NCBI GenBank assembly: GCA_965219085.1
Contig: OZ244720.1
Location: 1,760,001 to 1,824,000 of the forward strand
DNA: 64,000 bases
From: Dehalococcoidia bacterium
Lineage (GTDB): Bacteria > Chloroflexota > Dehalococcoidia > UBA2979
Reading direction: 5' to 3'
A program made the position numbers and the translations under genes. The notes beneath the pieces are model-generated. The model ran no database searches. It was not told the DNA's origin and saw only the letters and a program-made list of their open reading frames with translations. Positions 35,493 to 47,748 of this stretch are shown one piece after another. Each line of letters opens with the position of its first letter. The first letter of the stretch is position 1.

Positions 35493-36775
35493 TGCCCGGC
35501 CCCATGACCGGCGTGCGCGTCGTCGAGGTGGGCGACCTCGGCGAGGTGGCGGGCAAGCTGCTCGCCGACGCGGGCGCCGACGTGATCCGCGTCGAGCCGC
35601 CACGGGGGGCGCGCACGCGCCACACCGGCCCGTTCGTCGACGACCGCGCGGACCCGAACGCCTCCCTGCGCTACGCCTACCTCAACACCAACAAGCGCGG
35701 CGTCACGCCCGACCTCGCCGCGCCCGGCGCTGCCGACGTGTGGCGCCGGCTCATCGAGACCGCCGACGTGGTCATCGACGCGGCGGGGCCGGGCGTGCTC
35801 GATGCCCTCGGCGTGGGGCACGAGGCGGCCGGGGACCTGGAGCGGCTCGTGTGGTGCTCGATCACGCCGTTCGGGCTGACGGGGCCGTGGCGCGACCGAC
35901 CCACGAACGACCTCGTGAGCATCGCGCTTGGCGGCATCGCGATGATGAACGGCTACGACGACCACGAGCTGCCGCCCGTGCGACCCGACGGCGAGCACTC
36001 GCTCGCGATGGGCGGTGAGTACGCATCGATGGGCATCATCGCCGCGCTGCTCGAACGCGAGCGCACGGGCCGCGGCACGCACCTCGACGTCTCGATTCAC
36101 GAATGCGTGGCCGGGACGACCGAGGGCGCGTTCTGGAACTGGGAGTACAACGGGGTCAACCCGGAGCGGAAGACCGGACGCCACGCCGGCACGGTCGAGG
36201 AGTGGCAGATGGCCTCCGACGAGGGCGGCTACGTCGTCGTCTTCGGCGGTGGCGTGCCGCGCTCGCGCAACTCGCTGCGCGCTCTGCTCGCCTGGATGGA
36301 CGAGCACGACGCCGCCGGCGACCTGCACGACCCCCGGTACGAGGAGCTGCTGACCACTTCGCCGCTCGAGGCGGGCGAGCTGCGGGCGGAGTTCGGCCAG
36401 ACGGTGATGGCGTTCCTGCGCTCGCGCCCGGTGGACGAGGTCTACCGGCGCGGGCAGGCGATCGACATGGCTTGGGCGCCGGTGCGCGCACCCGAGGACA
36501 ACCTCGACGACCCGCACTGGGCGGACCGCGAGTTCTTCGTCGAGGGCGAGGCGCCCGGCTTCGACGGCACGATCCGCTACCCGCGCGCCGGTTACAAGTT
36601 CACGCGCACGCCGGTCGAGATGCGCCGTCGCGCGCCGCTGCTCGGTGAGCACAACAGCGAGGTGTTCGAGGGCGAACTCGGCCTGAGCGCCGCCGAGGTC
36701 GCCGCCGTCACGGGCCTCGCGGGAGACCAGGGGGGCGGCCCAGCACCGATCGGCTGCCCGGGAGGATCACCATGA
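35492..36775 (+). CDS. Class III CoA-transferase, BbsE-like subunit lacking the catalytic Asp
   Basis: GADVIRVEPPRG, NTNKRG, SITPFG, APLLGEH; TGATG coupling to the previous gene. Confidence 0.85.
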   Translation: MPGPMTGVRVVEVGDLGEVAGKLLADAGADVIRVEPPRGARTRHTGPFVDDRADPNASLRYAYLNTNKRGVTPDLAAPGAADVWRRLIETADVVIDAAGPGVLDALGVGHEAAGDLERLVWCSITPFGLTGPWRDRPTNDLVSIALGGIAMMNGYDDHELPPVRPDGEHSLAMGGEYASMGIIAALLERERTGRGTHLDVSIHECVAGTTEGAFWNWEYNGVNPERKTGRHAGTVEEWQMASDEGGYVVVFGGGVPRSRNSLRALLAWMDEHDAAGDLHDPRYEELLTTSPLEAGELRAEFGQTVMAFLRSRPVDEVYRRGQAIDMAWAPVRAPEDNLDDPHWADREFFVEGEAPGFDGTIRYPRAGYKFTRTPVEMRRRAPLLGEHNSEVFEGELGLSAAEVAAVTGLAGDQGGGPAPIGCPGGSP

Positions 36776-39393
36776 CCAAGCGGCCACTCGAGGGCGTACG
36801 CGTACTGGACTTCACGTGGGTGCGCGCCGGGCCGTGGGCCACGCGCTGGCTGTCCGTGATGGGCGCCGAGGTGATCAAGGTCGAATGGCCGGACCCGCGG
36901 CTCGCCTTCACGGGCCGCACGGGCAGCCTCGGCGACGCGAGCGCGGGCCCGAACTCGAACGGCCACTTCAACGACCAGAACGCCGAGAAGCTGAGCATCA
37001 CCATCAACGTGCGCAGCCCGAAGGGCCTGCAGATCATCAAGGACCTGCTGCGCTCGACGGACATCGTGATCGAGAACTTCAGCGCCGGCGTGCTGCGCGA
37101 CTGGGGCCTCTCCTTCGACGAGATGCGCGCGATCAAGCCCGACCTCATCTACGTCTCGATGGCCGGCTTCGGCCAGACGGGGCCGCACGCGCACTACACG
37201 ACGTTCGGACCCTCGGCGCAGGCGCTGTCTGGCCTGACGTTCCTGTCGGGGCTGCCCGACGCGCCGCCCGCCGGGTGGGGCTGGTCGTACATGGACGACA
37301 CCGGCGGCATGCACGGCGCGATTGCCGCGCTGACCGCGCTTCACCACAGGCGCGCCACCGGCGAGGGCCAGCACGTCGACCTCTCGCAGGTCGCGACCGG
37401 CATGACGCTGACCGGCCCGGCGCTCCTCGACCTCAGCGCCAACGGGCGGGGGTCGAGGCGATCCGGCTACCCGCCGGGCAACCGCACGCACTGGCCGGGC
37501 AGCGAGCTGCTCAACAACTACCGCGGCCGCCACGCAGCGCCGCACAACGCCTACCGCACCCTGGGCGATGGACACCACGACTGGGCCGTCATCGCCTGCT
37601 TCTCCGACGAGGAGTGGCGCACCCTCGTCGACGTCATGGGCTCGCCCGAGTGGGCGACCGCCCCGCAGTTCGACACGCTGCGGGGTCGCCTCGCGCACCA
37701 GCTCGAGATCGACGAGGGCATCGCCGCGTGGGCGGCGACCATCGAGAAGTACGAGCTGGCCGACCGCTGCCAGGCGGCAGGCGTGCGCGCCGCGCCGGTG
37801 CAGAGCAACCAGGACCGCGTCGAGCACGACCCGCAGCTGCGCCACCGGGGGATGTTCGAGCCGGTGCTGCATCCTGTCATCGGCGAGCACGCGATGCAGC
37901 AGGCGCCGTTCAAGCTCTCAGCGACGCCGGTGCCGGTGGAGACGGGGGGGCCGCTGCTCGGAGCGGACAACGTCCCGATCCTCGGCGGCATGCTCGGCAT
38001 GACGTGGGACGAGATCGCCGGCGGTTACGAGGACGGCACGCTCTGGCCCGCGGGCCAGCCGGTCGAGCGCTACCTGCTGGAGCCGCCGGCGCAGATGCCG
38101 CCACCGCACGTCGAGGATCCACTCCCACCGGTGACGGTCGAGCGTCGCCACTCCGGCGGCGCCCTCGGCGACCTGCGCGTGATCGAGATTGGGGGCGAGA
38201 TCGGCGAGTGGGCCGCGAAGCTCATGGCCGACCAGGGCGCCGACGTGATCAAGATCGAGCCTCCCCGCGGCTCAGCCGAGCGCGAGATCGGCCCGTTCTA
38301 CGAGGACGTGCCGGACGCCGAGCGCAGCCTCCACTTCTGGCACTACAACACCAGCAAGCGCGGTATCACCCTGGACGTGACGACCGAGGACGGCCGCGCC
38401 CTGTTCCGCCGCCTCGTCGCCAGCGCGGACGTGCTCATCGACTCGCTGCCGCTCGGCGAGCTCGACTCGCTCGGGCTCGGGTACGAGGCGCTGAGCGCCG
38501 GCAACCCGGGCCTCATCATGTGCTCGATCACGCCGTTCGGGCAGAGCGGGCCGTGGACCGGCTGGCGCACCTCGGACCTCATCCAGCTCGCCGTAGGCGG
38601 GCAGATGGGGGAGTGTGGCTACGACGAGGTGGACGTGCCCGGACGCCCGCCGATCGCGCCCGGCGGCGGCAACGCCTGGCACATCGGCAGTCACTACGCC
38701 TACATCGCGATCATGGGCGCGGTGTTCCACCGCGGCGTCACCGGCGAGGGCCAGTTCATCGACGCCTCCGTCCACGATGCCTGCGCGCTCACGACCGAGG
38801 GCGGCGTGACGGAGTGGATCTACGGTCGGACGGTGCGCCAGCGACAGACCGGCCGCCACGCGTCGTCGAGGCCCACGCCGCCCTCGCAGTACCGCTGCGC
38901 CGACGGCATCTACGTGAACACGCTGGCGTTCCCGCTGCTCATGAACCCGGCGGGCATCCGCCGCCTCGCCGAGTGGTTCGACGCGCACGGCCTCGCCGAC
39001 GACCTGCTCGACGACAAGTACGCCGACCCGGAGGTCATCGCGGCGAACGAGCAGCACGTGAAGGACGTGCTGCGCGAGTTCATCGCCTCGCAGCCCTCGG
39101 AGACCGTCTACCACGAGGGCCAGAACCGCGGCTTCTCGATGGGCCCGGTGCGCGCACCCGAGGAGGTGATGGCGGACCAGCACTTCCACGAGCGCGGCTT
39201 CTTCGTCGAGGTCGACCACCCCGACATCGGCCGCACGCTCACGTACCCGGGCGCGCAGGCCGTCTACGGCGCGTCGCCGTGGCGCATCCAGCGCCGCGCG
39301 CCGCACATCGGCGAGCACAACGCCGAGGTCTACGGCGACCTCGGCCTCTCCACGCTGGAGCTGGCGGCGCTGCGCGAGGGCGGGGTGCTGTAG
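36772..39393 (+). CDS. Fused two-domain class III CoA-transferase
   Basis: N-half contains YMDDTGG; C-half contains GADVIKIEPP/NTSKRG/SITPFG; ATGA overlap with the previous gene. Confidence 0.9.
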   Translation: MTKRPLEGVRVLDFTWVRAGPWATRWLSVMGAEVIKVEWPDPRLAFTGRTGSLGDASAGPNSNGHFNDQNAEKLSITINVRSPKGLQIIKDLLRSTDIVIENFSAGVLRDWGLSFDEMRAIKPDLIYVSMAGFGQTGPHAHYTTFGPSAQALSGLTFLSGLPDAPPAGWGWSYMDDTGGMHGAIAALTALHHRRATGEGQHVDLSQVATGMTLTGPALLDLSANGRGSRRSGYPPGNRTHWPGSELLNNYRGRHAAPHNAYRTLGDGHHDWAVIACFSDEEWRTLVDVMGSPEWATAPQFDTLRGRLAHQLEIDEGIAAWAATIEKYELADRCQAAGVRAAPVQSNQDRVEHDPQLRHRGMFEPVLHPVIGEHAMQQAPFKLSATPVPVETGGPLLGADNVPILGGMLGMTWDEIAGGYEDGTLWPAGQPVERYLLEPPAQMPPPHVEDPLPPVTVERRHSGGALGDLRVIEIGGEIGEWAAKLMADQGADVIKIEPPRGSAEREIGPFYEDVPDAERSLHFWHYNTSKRGITLDVTTEDGRALFRRLVASADVLIDSLPLGELDSLGLGYEALSAGNPGLIMCSITPFGQSGPWTGWRTSDLIQLAVGGQMGECGYDEVDVPGRPPIAPGGGNAWHIGSHYAYIAIMGAVFHRGVTGEGQFIDASVHDACALTTEGGVTEWIYGRTVRQRQTGRHASSRPTPPSQYRCADGIYVNTLAFPLLMNPAGIRRLAEWFDAHGLADDLLDDKYADPEVIAANEQHVKDVLREFIASQPSETVYHEGQNRGFSMGPVRAPEEVMADQHFHERGFFVEVDHPDIGRTLTYPGAQAVYGASPWRIQRRAPHIGEHNAEVYGDLGLSTLELAALREGGVL

Positions 39394-40050
39394 CAGGGTG
39401 CTGAAAAAGGCGCGGCCATCTGGCAGGATAGCGAAGGCGGCGGGGGCGTAGCCTGGGAGGCAGCCCCGTGCGAGGCGACGCTGAGCGTCAGACCAACATG
39501 TTGCTGGCGGTGACGCCGGACTCCTTCATCCCGGACGACCACCCGATCCGACGCATCAAGCCGATCGTCGATGCAGCGCTGCAGCGGCTCTCGCCGCTCT
39601 TCGGCACGATGTACGCAACGAGCGGGCGGCCCTCGATCCCGCCCGAGCACCTGCTCAAGGCGAGCCTGCTGATCGCGCTCTACTCGATCCGCAGCGAGCG
39701 CCAGTTCTGCGAGCGGCTGCGCTACGACCTGCTCTTCAAGTGGTTCTTGGACCTCAACATCTCAGACGCGCCGTTCGACGCCTCGAGCTTCTCGAAGAAC
39801 CGCGAGCGCCTGCTCGCAGCCGATGTCGCGCGCGCCTTCTTCGCCGAGGTGGTGGCCGAGGCAAAGCGCCGCCGGCTGCTCTCGGCCGAGCACTTCACGG
39901 TGGACGGGACGCTGCTCGAGGCGTGGGCGTCGCTCAAGAGATGGCATGAGGGCCGGTCTCTTCCTCAAGGGGGATACTCGCCCCCGAAACAGCGGCCTCG
40001 ATGGGCCAGAACGGCTCTTTGCGGAGCTTTGACGAGGTAGGAGACCGGCC

Positions 40051-41139
40051 GTGCAGCAGGATACCGCAACGACGTGGAGCATTGAGGGCAAGGAAGGGTC
40101 AGGGGTCACCATCGGCCTCGACGTGGGCGACCGCTACACCCACGTCCACGCCCTCGGCGCCGGCGGGGAGGTGGTACGTGAGAGGCGCGTCCGCACCACG
40201 ACGGCAGCGCTGGGCATGGTGCTGACCGGCCTCCCCCCATCGCGGGTCGTGATCGAGGCGGGGCCGCGCTCGCCGTGGCTGAGCCGCCTCATGGCGGACC
40301 TCGGCCACGAGGTGGTCGTCGCCAACCCGCGCCAGGTCGCGCTGATCGCCGGCAGCCAGCGCAAGACCGACCGGCTCGACGCCGAGTGGCTGGCGCGGCT
40401 GGGGCGCTTCGACCCCCAGTTGCTCGCCCCGATCCGCCACCGCAGCGAGGCGAGCCAGCACGACCTCGCCGTGGTGCGCGCCCGCGACGCGCTGGTGCGC
40501 TCGCGGACGCTGCTCATCAACCACGTGCGCGGGGCCGTCAAGGCCTGCGGAGCCGCGTTGCCGTCGTGCACGGCCGAGGCGTTCCACCGCAAGACGGCGG
40601 ACCACATCCCCGACGGGCTGCGCCCGGCGCTGCTGCCGCTGGTGGAGGCGATCGGCGAGCTGACCGCGCGCATCGCGGCGGCCGGCCGCGAGATCGAGGC
40701 GTTGTGCGAGGCTCACTCCGAGACCGCGGCGCTGCGCCAGGTCACGGGCGTCGGGCCGATCACCGCGCTCACGTTCGTGCTGACGATCGAGGATCCTGGG
40801 CGCTTCCCGAAGAACCGCGAGGTCGGCGCCTACCTCGGGCTCGTGCCGAGGCAGCGCGACTCGGGCGAGCGCACGCCGCAACTCGGCATCGGCAAGAGCG
40901 GCGATCCGCACCTGCGGCGGCTGCTGGTGCAGGCCGCGCACTACATCCTCGGCCCCTTCGGGCCCGACACCGACCTGCGCCGCTGGGGTGAGCGCTACAC
41001 CGCTACGGGGGCCGGTAACGCGAAGAAGCGCGCCGTCGTGGGCGTCGCGAGGCGGCTGGCGGTGCTGCTGCTCGCGCTGTGGAAGACCGGCGAGGTCTAC
41101 GAGCCGTTGCGCGACGCCGCGGCGCAGGAGGCCGCGTAG
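40051..41139 (+). CDS. IS110/IS1111 DEDD recombinase-transposase
   Basis: IGLDVG, VIEAG, KTDRLDA, GVGPITA, YLGLVP..DSG; RBS GGAG. Confidence 0.95.
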   Translation: MQQDTATTWSIEGKEGSGVTIGLDVGDRYTHVHALGAGGEVVRERRVRTTTAALGMVLTGLPPSRVVIEAGPRSPWLSRLMADLGHEVVVANPRQVALIAGSQRKTDRLDAEWLARLGRFDPQLLAPIRHRSEASQHDLAVVRARDALVRSRTLLINHVRGAVKACGAALPSCTAEAFHRKTADHIPDGLRPALLPLVEAIGELTARIAAAGREIEALCEAHSETAALRQVTGVGPITALTFVLTIEDPGRFPKNREVGAYLGLVPRQRDSGERTPQLGIGKSGDPHLRRLLVQAAHYILGPFGPDTDLRRWGERYTATGAGNAKKRAVVGVARRLAVLLLALWKTGEVYEPLRDAAAQEAA

Positions 41140-41222
41140 CAAGGCGCGGCGCCGAAGCAACCGACCAGGAGAGCGAGACTGAGACGGACCTGGGAGGAGG
41201 CCCAGCAAACCAACCACTGCAC

Positions 41223-41370
41223 GTGATGCCGGGCAACGGGCGACTGCGAGGCGGTAGCGGTCCAACAAGGACGTTCAAGAGTTGGCAGCGCCCCCTGGAA
41301 GCAGGATGTGCCTTCATGCACCGGGCCCGATACGTGGCCCATCAAAGAGTGCGGATAGAAGCTCGGCACA
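41223..41370 (+). ncRNA. Predicted seekRNA/bridge RNA of the IS1111-type element (bounds approximate)
   Basis: Target matches at 41250-41258 and 41272-41281; donor matches at 41339-41343 and 41355-41361; closing stem TGCCGGGC / GCTCGGCA. Confidence 0.75.
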
Positions 41371-41631
41371 GGCTCCGTCAGGGGACATCACGAGCGGATC
41401 GGCCCCGATGTCGAGGAGCGCCACGCCCCGAGGAGGAGGCCGCCACGTCGGCCTTGCAGAAAGACCGTCCCTCATAGAAGCTACCGCCCGCGCGACGAGC
41501 AGGAGCCACCCCTGGGCGGACGCAACCCGGATGTCGACTTCCGCGGGCGGCGGCGCAGCCGCGATACGCATAGTTCCGGCACGGACCCGGAGGCGCGGCT
41601 GTACACGAAGACACCCCAGGACGCTAAGGGG

Positions 41632-42855
41632 TCAAGCAGCGAGGTCCTCGTGGGTGTAACGGTGTCCCCAGGCGGTCGTCTCGTCGTAGGGCAAGCGGCG
41701 CTTCAGGCAGCCATGTAGGTAGCCGACGAGACGGTTGCCGAGGGCGCGGAGCGCCTGGTGGTGGAGGTCGCCCGCGGCGCGCCGCCGATCGTAGAACTCG
41801 CGGCAGCCGGGGCTGGCCTGCAGGGAGCACAGCGCCCACTGGTCGACTGCGTCGTAGAGGCGCCGGTTGCGGACGAAGCGGGCTTTCACGGTGTGCTTGC
41901 GGCCGGATGCTACCGTCAGCGGCGACGTGCCGGCGTAGTTCCTGCGGGACTTCGCCGACTCGTAGCGTTCGGGGTCATCCCCGAACTCGCCAAGCACCCG
42001 GGCGCCGAGGACCACGCCGAGACCGGGCAGGGAACGGTAGATACCGGCGTCCGGGTGCTGCTCAAAATGGCTCGCGAGCTCGGCCTCGAGCTCCTTGATC
42101 TGACGGTTGATCTCGCCGATCACCCTCATTGCCGCACTGGTGCTCGCGGCGAATGCCTTGCTCACCGCGGGCGGAGCCTCGAGCTGCGGTGAGCGCAGCG
42201 CGTCGCGGACCTCGGCGGCGCGCCGCTCGATGTTGCGCCGGCGGCCGCCGCGGCGCAGCGCGGAGCGGATCTGGGTGATGCTCAGCCGCGCCGCCTCGCG
42301 CGGGCCAGGCGCTGTCGCCAGCACGCCCACCGCGTCGTCGTGCGCGAGGTCGGGGAAGGCCTCCAGCGCACCCGGAAAGTACTCCCTGAGCGCGTTGCGC
42401 AGCCGGTTGGTCTGGCGGACGCGGTCCCAGATCAACTGCTGGTGGGCGCGGGCGAGGATGCGCACCGCGGCGGCTTCGTCGCTGTCGCCGGCGACCTCCC
42501 GGTGGTTGTGCCGGTCGGTGCGGACGAGGTCGGCGAGCAGCTTCGCGTCGCCGGCGTCGGACTTGGCGCCGCCGACGTGGTGGCGGTCGCGGTAACGCGA
42601 CGCCGAGCGCGGGTTGATGGCGTAGACGTGGTAGCCGGCCGCGAGCAGTGCCGCGACCCAGGGGCCGCGGTCCGTCTCGATGCCGACGATCACCTCACCC
42701 GGTCCTGAGGCGTACCCGGCGACCAGTCCGTGCAGGGCAGTGATGCCCTCCACCCCTTCGGGCAGACGCCGGGCGGCGAGCCGCTCGCCCGCGTCGTTCA
42801 TGAGATGGACGTCGTGGTGGTCTTCGGACCAGTCATCGCCCAGGTACAAGGCCAT
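41632..42855 (-). CDS. IS110 DEDD recombinase-transposase
   Basis: YLGDDWS, GIETD, KSDAGDA, LPGLG..GARVLGE, AGTSP..ASG. Confidence 0.95.
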   Translation of the reverse strand: MALYLGDDWSEDHHDVHLMNDAGERLAARRLPEGVEGITALHGLVAGYASGPGEVIVGIETDRGPWVAALLAAGYHVYAINPRSASRYRDRHHVGGAKSDAGDAKLLADLVRTDRHNHREVAGDSDEAAAVRILARAHQQLIWDRVRQTNRLRNALREYFPGALEAFPDLAHDDAVGVLATAPGPREAARLSITQIRSALRRGGRRRNIERRAAEVRDALRSPQLEAPPAVSKAFAASTSAAMRVIGEINRQIKELEAELASHFEQHPDAGIYRSLPGLGVVLGARVLGEFGDDPERYESAKSRRNYAGTSPLTVASGRKHTVKARFVRNRRLYDAVDQWALCSLQASPGCREFYDRRRAAGDLHHQALRALGNRLVGYLHGCLKRRLPYDETTAWGHRYTHEDLAA

Positions 42856-42899
42856 CGTGTTTCAGTTCCTCTCCCGCTTCGCGCTGCTCGGTGCGACCC

Positions 42900-43090
42900 G
42901 GCGGGTTGGTTCCTGCGACGGCCTAATGGATCAGTGCTCGATGGCACGACACCCCATGAGTGCTGCAGAACAACCCGGAATACCAGCAGGGGCTCGGTCT
43001 TCGTGAAGCGGTCCAGAAGCCGCAGGGATCAGCTGAGAGCTCACCGGCTGGGCAGGGTCCAGAACCAGTCTGCCAGAGAACCTCTGGCCG
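42900..43090 (-). ncRNA. Predicted bridge RNA of the second IS110 (bounds approximate)
   Basis: Left target guide 43032-43024, right target guide 43007-42999, left donor guide 42956-42948, right donor guide 42929-42923; each pair is separated by a short hairpin. Confidence 0.8.
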
Positions 43091-43541
43091 CTGGTCGGGC
43101 CCCATTAGGGGTCGGGGCAGACGGCGAAGCTCAGCTACATGGGCCATCTGCTCACCGAGAACCGTCACGGTCTGGTGCTGGACGTGGAGTTGACCGAGGC
43201 GAACGGGTACGCCGAGCGCGAGGCGGCGGTCACGATGCTGGAGCGCAGCGTGAGCGGCTGCGGGACGCTGGGCGCCGACCGCGGCTACGACACGCGCGGC
43301 TTCGTGGCGGCGCTGCGCGCTCGCGGCGTGACGCCGCACGTGGCGCAGCACGACCGCGGCCGCCGCAGCGCCGTGGATGGGCGCACCACGCGGCATCGCG
43401 GCTACAGGCAGAGTCAGAAGCGGCGCAAGATCGTGGAGCAGGTCTTCGGCTGGATGAAGACCGTGGGCGGCGGGCGCAAGCTGCGTTTCGTGGGCCGCGA
43501 GCGCAACCGCTGTTGGCTGGAGCTCACCGCCGCCGCCTACA

Positions 43542-45176
43542 CCCGAATCCACCGATCGAAGCTTGACGGGGCGGGATGCCGGGCTGCCGGAGAGTTCGGC
43601 GGGCGTGCCGGTGTTCGCGGGGCGGGCCGGAGCCAGGAGCGGTCGCTCAGCGCAGCTCGGGGGCGCTGAGGGCGCGGGCGCAAGGCGTGCGCGGGCATGC
43701 TGGCGCGAGCCTCGGAGGGGGGCCGGCGCTGTGAGCGGTCGTCAGGCCGGGAGCGGTAACGCCCGTAGTCGCGCGAGCGCGGCTGCCAGCTGCCCGGCCC
43801 AGGGCCAGCGCCTGGGGAGGTGCAGGGTCCAGCGCCGGGCCGAGTGGGTGAGCCGTCCGGCGAGGGCGAAATAGCGCCGCCTGAGCGTCCTGGTGGTGAC
43901 GATTCCCTCGCCGAGCCCGAGCCGCGCCGTCCAGCGGGCGAGGTGTGCGCGATCACCTGCACCGCGAGCCATGCCGCGTTCGCGGCGAAGCGGCCCGAGG
44001 GGAGATGGTTGAGCCCGACGCCGTACTTGAGGTCGCGGATCGCGTTCTCGATCTCGGCGTGACGGCGATGGTCGGTCTCGAGCTCCAGCAGCTCCCCCGC
44101 GCGGTCGCTGATGAAGGCGTGGTAGCTGTACGTCGCGAAGAGCGCGAGCTGTGAGCCGGGCGTCGGCTGGACGCGCCGCACGATGAGCCGCACCGGGGTG
44201 GCGTCCTTCGCGTGCCGGAACGGGGTGTAGGTCGTCTCGGCGACAGCGGCGCCGCCCGGCAGCCAGTACGGGATCGGCGTCCAGTCCGCTTCCGGGATCG
44301 CCTCGATCAGCGTGCGTACGTTCGGTTGCTGGCGAATCGTGACCGAGAAGCGGACATCCAGCGCGCGGCAGACGGCGACGACAGCGTGGTTGTAGAAGCC
44401 GCTGTCGGCGCGCACCGTGAGCTGCCCGCTCGCCCCGGCGTCGCGCACCCGCGCCACCGTCTCACGCAGGAAGTGGGCGGCGCCGCGGGCAGTGTTGGCG
44501 CGGCCCTCGCGCAGCCGCGCCATCAGCACGTCACCCGTCCCGGCCGCAACGGCGAGCAGCGGGTGGTAGCCGTGCACGCCCGTGTAGCCGTGGTGGCGGG
44601 CGCCCTCCTTGGCCAGGCCGTAGGTCTCACAGATCGTCGAGTCGAGGTCGATCGTGAACGGCGCCGCGCCGGGTCCCGCCCCGGCCGCCCATGCGCGGGC
44701 GAGCAATGCGCGGCTGAGGCGGTCGAGCTGGCGGACGTGGCCCCAGCGGAAGCTGCGCAGGAAGGTCCCGAGGGTGGACGGCGCCTTGACCGTGCAACCC
44801 AGCACGCTCGCCGTCCCGCCGGCGCGCAACGCATCGGCGTCGTCGATGCAGTCACCGCCCGCGAGCGCCGAGGCGATGAGGGTCAGCAGCTTGTCGCCGG
44901 CGTTCGCCCGGCCCGGCGCGTCACCGAGGTCGACGCAGCTGTCGGCGAGCTCTTGCAGACCGAGATGCTGGGCGAGCGTGGCCGGGAGCAGCAGGCCCGC
45001 GTGGTCCACGAGGCGGTCGTCATCGAAGGCGATGTCTATCCGGTCGGGGTCGCTCGTTGGTAGCATCGAATGGGTGCTCCCTGTGGCTGTGACGTGATTC
45101 GGCAAAACCCATTGTCCCAGCTACAGCGGAGCACCCAACCGCAGCCGCTCGCACGCCCTTCTTCGGTGGATCAAGG
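43542..45176 (-). mobile_element. IS1380-family element (1635 bp) with 5-bp TSD CTACA
   Basis: IRs CCCGAATCCACCGA / TCGGTGGATCAAGG; CTACA at 43537-43541 and 45177-45181. Confidence 0.9.
43742..45066 (-). pseudogene. IS1380 transposase with a 1-bp frameshift near 43944
   Basis: IDLDST, GYHPL, VRADSGF, AEIENAIRDLKYG; the expected IAHNLARW continues as LARWTARLG..RLRALPLPA in another frame. Confidence 0.85.
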
Positions 45177-45508
45177 CTACAACCTCGTGCGCATGGCCAC
45201 GCTCGAGACCGCCGCGGCGTAGGCGCAGTGCGCCCTCCGCCCCGCCAGGGAGCCCTCAGAGGCCCCCGGGGGCCGGTCAGGAGGCCACGATCACGAACCC
45301 GGAGGCGGCTTGAAGCCGCCTCTCGCCACTCCGAGACCCCGGAAGGCGCTTCTTCAGCACCCTGCTAGCTCCGCCTGGCACGCCCCGTGCCGCCGTCATG
45401 TGGGGGCTCGTCGTCCCCGTCGCCGAGGTCAGGCAACCTCGATCGACGGCGATGCCTCGCGGCACGAAGGTGCGGGGGATCCGTCGCTCGGCGGCGACCG
45501 GTGGCGCC

Positions 45509-45684
45509 TCAGCCCCGAGCTTTGCGGGAGCGCGCGCCGTACATGATGCTCCCGTAGTAGCTGAATGACCGCCGTGCCTCGGCGTCCGCGAACGGATAGT
45601 CCGCGCCGAGCTGCCTCGCGGCGGCGAGCCCACTCACGAGGCAGGTTTCCTGACTGCTGATCAGCGTATGCGCGCCGCAGTGGG
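45509..45684 (-). pseudogene. C-terminal remnant resembling an FAD-dependent oxidoreductase
   Basis: HCGAHTLISSQETCLVSGLAAARQLGADYPF..YYGSIMYG resembles the end of amine-oxidase-like flavoproteins; no N-terminal part is present. Confidence 0.45.
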
Positions 45685-45795
45685 AGGTCGGCGATGAGGC
45701 GATTGCCGCGAGCGCTCGCGCGAGGCGCTCCCAGCCGCGAAGATGAAGCGACCACCGCGTACAGCCATCGCCACCGGAAGACCTCGCACCCACGC

Positions 45796-47748
45796 ATGAT
45801 CACGATCAACGACGTCACGATGCGCTTCGGCGGACAGCTCCTCTACGAGGGCGTCAACTGGCAGCTCCGGCCCGGCGGCCACTACGGCCTCGTCGGGGCG
45901 AACGGCTCCGGCAAGTCCACGCTGATTCGGCTCATGACCGGCGAACTCACACCGGACGCGGGCGCCATCGTCCAGCCGGCCGCGCTCCGCCTCGGCACGC
46001 TCGGCCAGGACCAGTTCCGGTTCAACGAGATGCGGCTGATCGACGTCGTGCTCATGGGCCGCCCCCAACTCTGGACCGCCATCGAGGAGCGGACGCGGCT
46101 GCTTGGCGCGTCCACGGAGACCCGGCCCGCGGAGACACTGACCGCCGAGGCCGGTGAGCGCCTCGCCGACCTCGAGCTGACGATCGCCGAGTTGCACGGG
46201 TACGAGGCGGAACCGCAGGCGGCCGCGCTGCTCGTCGGCCTCGGCATTGAACACGCGCGCCACGAGCGGCCGATGCGCGAGCTGTCGGGCGGCTTCCGGC
46301 TGCGCGTGCTGCTGGCGCAGGTGCTCTTCGGACAGCCCGACGTGCTGCTGCTCGACGAGCCGACGAACCACCTCGACATCGCCTCGATCCAGTGGCTCGA
46401 GGGCTACCTGCGCGAGTTCGCGGGCGCCTTCGTGGTCGTCTCGCACGACCGCCACTTCCTCAACGCCGTGTGCGACACGATCGCAGACCTCGACTACTCC
46501 GAGCTGCGGCTCTACACCGGCGACTACGACGCGTTCGAGCGCGCCAAGCACCTCACCGTCACCCAGAAGGACGCCGAGATCGCGCGCGCCGAGGGACGCA
46601 TCGAGGAGATGCAGCAGTTCATCGACCGCTTCCGCGCGAAGGCCACCAAGGCTCGCCAGGCATCCGCCCGCAAGAAGCAGGTCGAGAAGATCGAGATGCC
46701 CGAGGTCCGCCGCAGCTCGCGGCGCGCGCCCGGCTTCGCGTTCGGCCAGCGGCGCCCCTCGGGCCGCACGCCGCTGCGCGTCGCGGGCCTGGCGAAGAGC
46801 TACAACGGGCAGGCCGTGCTCGACGATGTCTCGTTCGAGTTGGAGCGCGGCGACCGGCTCGCGGTCGTCGGGCCCAACGGCGTCGGCAAGTCGACGCTGC
46901 TCAGGGTGGTCAGCGGCATCATCGAGGCCGACGGCGGTACGTCTGAGTTCGGCTACGAGACGCACCTCGGCTACTTCGCGCAGGATGTCGGCGACGAGTT
47001 GCACGGCGAGCAGCCCGTCCTCGACTGGCTGGGCGGCGCCAGCGGCGAGGCCGACCTCGGCAAGCTGCGCGCGGCCCTCGGCCGCGTGCTCTTCAGCGGC
47101 GACGACGTGCACAAGCGGATCGGGAGCCTCAGCGGCGGGGAAGCCGCGCGGCTACTGCTGGCCGCGCTGATGCTGCGCCGGCCGAACCTGCTCGTCCTCG
47201 ACGAGCCCACCAACCACCTCGACCTCGAGGGCCGCGAGGCGCTGATGCACGCGCTCCGCGACTACCCGGGCACGCTCGTCTTCGTCAGCCACGACCGTCA
47301 CTTCGTCTCCAACGTCGGGACCCGTGTGCTGGTGCTGCGCCCCGATGGCTTCGAGGACGTGGCGGGCGCCTACGAGGAGTACCTCGAACGCCGCGGCGGC
47401 GACTTCCTGTCGACCAGCATCGCCGCGCCGCGGACCCGGCGGAGCGGGAACGGCGCAGGCAAACAGCACGGCAGGCACGCTCGGGCCGCGAGCAAGGAGC
47501 AGCGCCGGCGCCAGGCGCGGCTCGCTCGCCGCGTCGAGGAGCTGGAGCGCGAGATCGCCGAGGTCGAGGCGCAACTGGCCCCGATCGCCGCGCGCTTCGC
47601 CAACAACGACTACTACTCGCGCGTCTCGCTCGACGAGATCCGCGCCGACGAGGGCCGCCAGATCGAGTTGCAGACCCGCCTCGACGCCGCGATGCAGGCG
47701 TGGGAGGCCGCGGCACACCAACTCGAAGCCACCGAGGCGCCGGTCTAA
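45796..47748 (+). CDS. ABC-F family ATPase
   Basis: Two ABC cassettes (GANGSGKST, LSGG, DEPTNHLD twice), linker FIDRFRAKATKARQA, C-terminal coiled coil, no TM segments. Confidence 0.92.
   Translation: MITINDVTMRFGGQLLYEGVNWQLRPGGHYGLVGANGSGKSTLIRLMTGELTPDAGAIVQPAALRLGTLGQDQFRFNEMRLIDVVLMGRPQLWTAIEERTRLLGASTETRPAETLTAEAGERLADLELTIAELHGYEAEPQAAALLVGLGIEHARHERPMRELSGGFRLRVLLAQVLFGQPDVLLLDEPTNHLDIASIQWLEGYLREFAGAFVVVSHDRHFLNAVCDTIADLDYSELRLYTGDYDAFERAKHLTVTQKDAEIARAEGRIEEMQQFIDRFRAKATKARQASARKKQVEKIEMPEVRRSSRRAPGFAFGQRRPSGRTPLRVAGLAKSYNGQAVLDDVSFELERGDRLAVVGPNGVGKSTLLRVVSGIIEADGGTSEFGYETHLGYFAQDVGDELHGEQPVLDWLGGASGEADLGKLRAALGRVLFSGDDVHKRIGSLSGGEAARLLLAALMLRRPNLLVLDEPTNHLDLEGREALMHALRDYPGTLVFVSHDRHFVSNVGTRVLVLRPDGFEDVAGAYEEYLERRGGDFLSTSIAAPRTRRSGNGAGKQHGRHARAASKEQRRRQARLARRVEELEREIAEVEAQLAPIAARFANNDYYSRVSLDEIRADEGRQIELQTRLDAAMQAWEAAAHQLEATEAPV

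Follow-up and report, generated by a model that had tools for sequence, protein, structure and literature searches.

Within the IS110 family of insertion sequences (IS), the element IS1383 reportedly integrates into the inverted repeats of IS1384, as Mueller, Lauf and Hermann are said to have found in Pseudomonas putida H in 2001. IS4321 and IS5075 are likewise said to target the ends of Tn21, and the elements of the IS1111-attC group attC sites. IS110-family elements feature a two-loop RNA and a core dinucleotide; the RNA lies in the left end of the element (IS110 group) or in its right end (IS1111 group), and subterminal repeats occur (PMC11208160). The marks of the IS1111 group are subterminal inverted repeats of 7-17 bp and a longer non-coding region downstream of the transposase gene (PMC11208160; PMC11187229), and for the IS1111-type elements ISEc11 and ISXne4 a natural retargeting by seekRNA between close relatives is described (PMC11187229; Siddiquee et al. 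2024). Here, we analyse an IS nest in a 64-kb stretch of the chromosome of a Dehalococcoidia bacterium (contig OZ244720.1, positions 1,760,001 to 1,824,000; G000:C1:1760001-1824000). This stretch, at its whole length of 64,000 nucleotides, is called the window below. A preliminary description of it, made from the letters alone, had proposed one IS5 hit by three unrelated IS. Our own reading, to which we assign a probability of roughly 85%, is a nest of four IS: an IS5-family element was hit by two RNA-guided IS110-family elements, termed insA and insB, at specific sites, and then by an IS1380-family element, termed insC (Table 1).

The nest is the sole stretch of the window that is repeated elsewhere in the genome, which consists of a single contig of 3,305,961 bp without N. 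Its copies were counted by part-by-part blastn against this genome, by reading of the junctions and by pattern scans. If the four coding segments of the IS5 transposase gene are joined, they sum to 1077 nt and translate to 358 aa plus a stop codon without any internal stop, just as the preliminary description had stated. The open reading frame (ORF) of an intact sister copy (L013, 576-1652) comprises 358 aa as well, 13 of which are different in the joined frame. Six uninterrupted IS5 copies are found in the genome, five of which are mutually 99.9-100% identical and share 96.4% identity with the emptied window copy. Across all three junctions, these uninterrupted copies show the exact sequence of the excised window copy. 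The terminal inverted repeats (TIRs), previously described as intact, are indeed both present and flanked by TA, and identical ends with TA flanks of their own were found in all six intact and in all six complete interrupted IS5 copies. The assignment to the IS5 family follows from Pfam (PF05598 and PF01609, on the fragments) and from the NCBIfam model NF033581, which scores the intact sister copy at 254 bits (cutoff 140); the IS1182 model reaches 215 bits on the same copy and stays under its cutoff of 270. In the empty element, the IS110 insertion points are located at positions 546/548 (site A) and 678 (site B), and their distance, formerly estimated at about 130 bp, was measured as 132 nt.

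Both IS110s cluster at these two sites, as became visible once the IS5 copies of the genome and their occupancy were tabulated along the lines suggested in the preliminary description. All five insA copies (99.8-100% identical) are inserted in IS5 at position 546/548, and five of the six insB copies (99.87-100% identical) are inserted in IS5 at position 678. The opposite outcome considered earlier, with IS110 copies mostly outside IS5, was thus not encountered (inside IS5: insA 5/5, insB 5/6), and the high identity among the insert copies supports the view that the insertions are recent. The left half of site A is kept in 14 IS5 or IS5-like copies, comprising five with insA, one diverged IS5 with an 86% identical insA relative, and eight that are empty. 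Site B is kept in 12 IS5 copies. Five of them read CACGAAG/GGGTCG and all five carry insB, whereas seven read CACAAAG/GGAGCG and none of these carries insB (CTTCGTG 5/5 versus CTTTGTG 0/7; Fisher P 0.0013, for copies that are not independent). The one remaining insB copy (genome 166284-167780), the sixth, has unrelated ORFs on either side and occupies a site that shares the right target CTTCGTG and has the left target GATCTCT, one mismatch away from the guide. Elsewhere in the chromosome, 21 other uninterrupted 12-mers differ from the guide-defined insB target by no more than one mismatch, none of them being a perfect match, and all are empty; the IS5 sites are therefore over-occupied.

Neither insA nor insB possesses TIRs or is flanked by a target duplication. 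Each is inserted at a shared core dinucleotide, as is typical of the IS110 family. The two junctions of either element have precisely AG in common with the empty site, which leaves each boundary ambiguous by these two nucleotides. The non-coding ends of insA measure 112 nt (left) and 339 nt (right), such that the longer one lies downstream of the transposase gene, and its subterminal repeats agree at 12 of 13 positions; both features are those of the IS1111 group. insB has a left end of 253 nt (43108-42856) and a right end of 21 nt, so that its longer non-coding end precedes the transposase gene, and it lacks long subterminal repeats, both as in the IS110 group. Both transposases are recognised by the same model, NF033542, which bears the name 'IS110 family RNA-guided transposase', while the two proteins share 29% identity over 161 aligned N-terminal residues, this being their sole significant alignment. 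Of the 'three unrelated IS' of the preliminary description, the number of inserts thus stands and the lack of kinship does not: judged by their proteins, insA and insB are distinct members of one family and not unrelated elements.

The non-coding ends of both IS110s contain guide-like stretches that fit the respective IS5 target. insA would aim at TCAAG-AG-CTACCGCC, and insB at GACCC-CT-TCGTG, on the strand opposite to the insA target and 132 nt away from it. In insA, a conserved GUCC/GGAC hairpin is found between the left and right target guides, whose 7-nt and 9-nt matches abut the insertion point; among 20,000 shuffles of the right end, none (0/20,000) contained both together. The donor guide ATAGAAG is conserved in six of the seven aligned insA-family copies, the seventh being truncated there, and a partial match to the right donor, TCATGC, is located at 41314-41319. 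In insB, the two target guides are parted by a GCGG/CCGC stem, and all four guide stretches are arranged as in bridge RNAs of the IS621 type. When the guide test was run for insB in a less stringent form (5-nt plus 7-nt exact matches), 46 of 20,000 shuffles gave hits. We also considered a recognition of the left IS5 target as donor, through likeness to the right end of insA, and rejected it since the 7-nt stretches do not match.

Furthermore, the guides change together with the target. If the seven insA-family copies of the genome are aligned, two right-end stretches around the GUCC/GGAC hairpin vary between copies. Three insA relatives with 85-88% identity (genome 1259819-1261333, 1333208-1334571 and 1936775-1938289) sit within IS1380 copies at one and the same site, CCGGGC(C/A)G-AG-TGGGTGAG, and carry CACCCACT and GGCAGAG at the guide positions of insA, both of which match their site. 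This site is present but vacant in the insC of the window (~43841-43845). Another insA-family copy, at 2848474, carries CCGCATAG, matching its own left flank. Similarly, three other genomes contain insB relatives (83-85% identical) whose right guides fit other flanks, namely ATGAAG/CTTCAT and GGGAGAG/CTCTCCC, and the stem between the guides shifts in a compensatory manner from GCGG/CCGC to GAGA/TCTC (GAGA/UCUC in the RNA), while the donor guides and the element ends remain constant among the relatives of insA and of insB. Guide-like stretches that fit the IS5 targets and covary with the target in relatives point to RNA guidance of both IS110s, from which we infer that the RNAs are made and used.

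The nest has probably arisen as follows. IS5 would first have jumped into the stop codon of a CoA-transferase gene, at a site resembling CTAG, and two different IS110-family elements would then have hit the IS5 transposase gene. For each of these two, a recombinase of the DEDD type and a non-coding RNA are predicted; this RNA, known as bridge RNA or seekRNA, would pair with both halves of the IS5 target through one loop and with the ends of its own element through the other. insA and insB would insert as circles at the shared core dinucleotide without any duplication. Their copies would accumulate in IS5, and thereby disable it, because IS5 copies are numerous and such hits cost the host nothing; selection would be the presumable cause of the accumulation. 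The IS1380 element would have landed later in the same IS5 copy through ordinary DDE transposition with a 5-bp duplication; its transposase is now frameshifted.

Table 1. Features of the IS nest (window positions; +, forward strand; -, reverse strand; RNAs and their guides are predicted).
Feature	Position	Strand	Remarks
Left TA target duplication	39391-39392		within TAG stop codon of upstream CoA-transferase gene (36772-39393)
IS5-family element	39393-45365	+	1295 bp own sequence plus 4678 bp inserts
IS5 TIRs	39393-39409 and 45349-45365		17 nt, 1 mismatch
IS5 transposase fragment 1	39468-39938	+	N-terminal, DUF772 domain
insA	39939-41478	+	IS110 family, IS1111 group; 1540 bp with one copy of shared core AG
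insA left subterminal inverted repeat	39946-39958	+	ATGAGGGCCGGTC; partner 41463-41475, 12/13 positions match
insA DEDD transposase	40051-41139	+	362 aa; PF01548 and PF02371; NF033542 240 bits, cutoff 140
insA RNA, right target guide	41250-41258	+	GGCGGTAGC; reverse complement of IS5 GCTACCGCC directly right of insertion point
insA RNA, left target guide	41275-41281	+	TCAAGAG; equals IS5 sequence left of insertion point plus core
insA RNA, left donor guide	41355-41361	+	ATAGAAG; equals right end of insA plus core
IS5 transposase fragment 2	41479-41610	+	132-nt linker region between both IS110 sites
insB	41611-43108	-	IS110 family, IS110 group; 1498 bp with one core copy (CT, own orientation)
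insB DEDD transposase	41632-42855	-	407 aa; PF01548 and PF02371; NF033542 191.6 bits, cutoff 140
insB bridge RNA, right donor guide	42923-42929	-	CCATTAG; reverse complement of insB left end CTAATGG
insB bridge RNA, left donor guide	42948-42956	-	TGGGGTGTC; equals right end of insB plus first core base
insB bridge RNA, right target guide	42999-43005	-	CACGAAG; reverse complement of target CTTCGTG
insB bridge RNA, left target guide	43024-43030	-	GATCCCT; IS5 target GACCCCT, 1 mismatch
IS5 transposase fragment 3	43109-43541	+	DDE domain
insC	43542-45176	-	IS1380 family, 1635 bp; CTACA duplication at 43537-43541 and 45177-45181
IS5 transposase fragment 4	45182-45222	+	C-terminal end and stop codon
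Right TA target duplication	45366-45367

Several points weigh against this reading. The left guide of insB has one mismatch to its IS5 target, and empty 12-mers identical to the IS5 target (n = 1) and to the sixth insB site (n = 1) exist elsewhere; the 12 nt identified are therefore not a full account of site choice. In addition, the insA target is intact in six empty IS5 copies, and two further empty copies differ at one of 15 positions. With six empty copies that keep the unchanged 15-nt target, insA is thus not saturating its sites. Single-sequence folds of both non-coding ends did not exceed shuffles in stability (z +1.71 and -0.12), and consequently we relied on covariation instead, while an Rfam scan of 39000-46000 detected no bridge-RNA family, with Ms_AS-4 as sole match. 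Furthermore, an insA relative (genome 340394-341911) that sits at site A of a diverged IS5 (339850-342536) carries guides of the IS1380 type. This relative is a mosaic: its first ~150 nt resemble the copy at 2848474 (95%), and the remainder shares 99-100% identity with the IS1380-targeting copies. Its mosaic structure would account for the discord between guide and site only if a later recombination is assumed. Finally, among the listed contigs of public runs, none spans the whole nest.

The fold predictions and the empty, equally matched 12-mers would also suit a site choice that depends solely on the recombinase protein or on DNA structure, with the guide-like matches being incidental. However, the guides of relatives change with the target while the recombinase remains 83-88% identical at the DNA level, the anchored insA matches did not appear in any of the 20,000 shuffles, and RNA guidance has been shown experimentally for this family (PMC11208160; PMC11187229). 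Such a protein- or structure-driven choice is hence very improbable. The empty insB-type 12-mers outside IS5 could possibly be explained in three ways: more than 12 nt might be read, non-IS5 insertions might be lost by selection, which corresponds to the safe harbour proposed in the preliminary description, or some of the occupied IS5 copies might derive from one another by copying.

Another explanation to be weighed is a misassembly, in which distinct repeats of a metagenome-derived assembly would have been joined into an apparent nest. The closest named relatives are metagenome-assembled genomes (MAGs), the nearest named records of the IS5 transposase being titled Dehalococcoidia MAGs, and the four public runs compared consist of short contigs. 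However, the IS5/insA and IS5/insB junctions are found again, identical in every base, at five loci each with differing flanks, deletion of each insert restores the exact sequence of the uninterrupted copies, and the genome is a single contig free of N. Contigs of the runs X9 and X11 moreover extend across the right IS5/chromosome junction (45341-45864) without a single difference, and the 5-bp duplication of insC is clean. We thus find an assembly artefact hardly credible. A contig of run X13 joins 39394 to 45374 and corresponds to the empty chromosomal site of a related strain. Parts of the nest used as queries matched in 27 of the 41 genomes searched, the present one included, and in 18 of 18 same-genus genomes; outside the present genome, the matches end at the element boundaries and, among the matches listed, none extends more than ~13 nt across any IS5/IS110 junction. 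Sponge metagenome runs contributed small shares only, which are no evidence of habitat.

The third scenario to be considered is that the occupancy is inflated by copying. IS5 with insA and insB might have been mobilised as a 4.3-kb composite by an intact IS5 transposase, such that the three IS5::insA::insB loci reflect one single insertion history. These three copies (genome 1202027, 1799393 and 3274436) indeed share a backbone of 99.5-99.7% identity and have their own TA and flanks each. All three contain both inserts, yet eight other IS5 copies whose insA target is identical or almost identical are empty. Moreover, an extra C at the end of insB is common to two of the three, and their ends are identical to those of the intact lineage. 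On the other hand, the backbones show 7 differences per 1295 nt and the inserts 5 per 3038 nt (Fisher P 0.052). For backbones and inserts of equal age the reverse would be expected, although the insert copies could also owe their lower divergence to gene conversion. Even so, the host backbones of the occupied copies vary (93-100% identity), each with its own TA duplications and flanks, and therefore insA and insB each hit IS5 at least three separate times, in at least three distinct backbones. That the occupancy is largely due to copying appears possible, if on the unlikely side. Mobilisation of the whole unit in trans, as suggested in the preliminary description, is mechanistically possible because its ends are identical to those of the intact lineage; on the data of this genome, it is not distinguishable from independent insertions that occurred repeatedly.

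With regard to its own insertion site, IS5 sits exactly in the TAG stop codon of a gene for an 873-aa protein with two CoA-transferase domains (36772-39393), and since IS5 starts with G, this stop codon is kept. The length of the target duplication is ambiguous, being either 2 bp (TA) or 3 bp (TAG). A 4-bp CTAG duplication would fit the IS5 copy at 1180078 and was rejected, as it is contradicted by the window copy and by the empty site in X13.

The third insert, insC, was assigned by PF13701 and by NF033539 (280.6 bits, cutoff 180). Its ends, which form terminal inverted repeats, read CCTTGATCCACCGAAG and CTTCGATCGGTGGATTCGGG, and 5-bp duplications, within the 4-5 bp of this family, are found at four of four full genomic copies. 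The stretch removed in the preliminary description to restore the IS5 frame, 43542-45181, comprises this 1635-bp element plus one copy of the CTACA duplication. If compared to two intact copies of 459 aa elsewhere in the genome, the transposase of insC is frameshifted through a 1-nt deletion near 43943-43945 and its frame is lost after about residue 390. In accordance with this, contigs of the public runs that stem from other insC copies show an extra base at 43943. Lacking an intact transposase, insC does not qualify as an autonomous copy.

IS110 elements are described to leave scarlessly as circles (PMC11208160). Two sources of 2026 qualify this: the excision of IS621 is reported to be less efficient than its insertion (PMC13626964), and in the cell-free system of a preprint the excision of IS621 was mostly single-stranded and left the donor intact. 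The proposed reversibility of the interruptions could concern insA and insB at most, because insC is a DDE element with a 5-bp duplication and would leave a scar. In the public runs, joints that skip insA, insB or insC were tried as evidence of excision and rejected, since the other IS5 copies of the genome produce identical joints; within these short contigs an excised allele is indistinguishable from such copies.

Two further observations concern insB. If its ends are joined as a circle (43108/41611), TTGACC, an 18-nt spacer and TCTAAT come to lie across the junction. The junction of IS110-family circles is described as a promoter (PMC11208160), and that of insB resembles such a junction promoter, which would be formed in the circular form only. 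Furthermore, Ms_AS-4, an actinobacterial small RNA family of Rfam, matches at 41950-42031 (+) with 63.9 bits (gathering score 50), antisense inside the insB transposase gene. This match probably reflects conserved IS110 coding sequence within the seed of that family.

The differing site B of the intact IS5 lineage deserves separate consideration. IS5 copies of related genomes (L015, L016, L026 and L019) carry the occupied type of site B, and the empty type is therefore derived. In the intact lineage, 30 lineage-specific changes were counted over 1294 aligned positions, three of which fall into the 12-nt insB target, compared to an expected 0.28 (binomial P 0.0027); clustering occurs elsewhere as well, with at least three changes in 30 of 1284 12-nt windows (2.3%). 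Two of the three target changes are synonymous and one replaces Ser by Ala. These substitutions are no more than suggestive of an escape of the intact IS5 lineage from insB. One might go further and speculate about an arms race within a multi-level network, in which the sole IS5 lineage that is intact and recently active (five identical copies) would have escaped insB by three substitutions, while the copies with the ancestral target are all disabled, sister IS110s were retargeted to IS1380, a group II intron invaded an IS110 and, in a related genome, an insA relative sits inside an insB relative. We regard this extended scenario as doubtful. In a same-genus genome (G012, identical with G041), at least nine IS5 copies are uninterrupted and carry site B in its occupied type, and the insB relatives of this genome sit elsewhere.

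Additional layers of nesting were found around these elements. In two of the five insA copies, an ORF-less element of ~911 nt lies 15 nt from the right end (L095:2572-3497, genome 1972909-1973834; L096:2572-3497, genome 1859038-1859963). On its opposite strand, this element is recognised by models of group II introns (RF02003 with 95 bits, RF00029 with 44.8 bits). Both units of insA plus intron are identical, and the first 548 nt of their host IS5 are 96.9% and 93.1% identical to the window copy; since identical units sit in differing IS5 copies, the IS110 may have moved with the intron as cargo. Arrays of solo right ends of the insA family, which are partial copies, occur in tandem after full elements (genome 2850056-2850738, 893331-893395 and the right flank of 1259819-1261333). 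An element of 1363 bp (genome 3090783-3092145) interrupts an insB-carrying IS5 at 3088355-3092522. It has nine further genomic copies (83-99.7% identity) and a 425-aa frame that looks like an IS256-type transposase. In related genomes (G041/G012:C1:1995524-1998402; G044/G017, e.g., C4:297813-301179), an insB relative, truncated near position 145 as counted in its own orientation, is directly bordered by an insA relative, and six copies of a 76% identical insA relative each adjoin an IS1380 copy. Insertion of IS into IS seems to be common in this genus.

How does this nest compare to what has been described? In the literature searched, no IS110-family element is described that inserts at internal positions of the transposase gene of an IS5, although such cases may be contained in the supplementary target tables of PMC11208160 and PMC11187229. 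With its occupied and empty targets, the guides of two IS110s and a retargeted sibling all on one chromosome, the present genome allows one to read side by side which rules govern targeting, how far mismatches are tolerated and what becomes of the host IS. It supports the notion of multicopy IS as low-cost landing sites for bridge-RNA elements. Furthermore, CTTCGTG (5/5 occupied) and CTTTGTG (0/7) provide a near-identical target pair for specificity assays.

IS110s that target other mobile elements are already known, and in this respect the nest is a tidy natural example rather than a new mechanism. It resembles the case of IS1383 in that an IS110-family element has another IS as its specific target. 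However, the target there is a terminal inverted repeat, that of the IS5-family member IS1384, whereas here two IS110s occupy two internal coding sites of an IS5 gene whose element has kept its ends intact. insA shares with IS4321/IS5075 and with the IS1111-attC group the subterminal repeats, the long downstream non-coding region and a target that is carried by mobile elements, but the targets of those are transposon ends or cassette recombination sites and not the coding sequence of an IS. insB, in turn, corresponds to IS621 in its predicted left-end RNA, its CT core, its predicted paired target and donor guides around two stems and its target of ~11-12 nt. In contrast to IS621, whose targets in E. 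coli are REP elements (Durrant et al. 2024, PMC11208160), insB would target an IS5 gene in a Dehalococcoidia-like genome. As described for ISEc11 and ISXne4, close relatives differ mainly in two target-matching stretches, and this holds for insA and its 85-88% relatives as well (PMC11187229); the difference is that both variants occur here in one genome, each aimed at a different resident IS family. Taken together, it is the internal IS5 coding targets, the convergence of two IS110s 132 nt apart, the sibling retargeted to IS1380 and the further layers of nesting that are particular to this locus.

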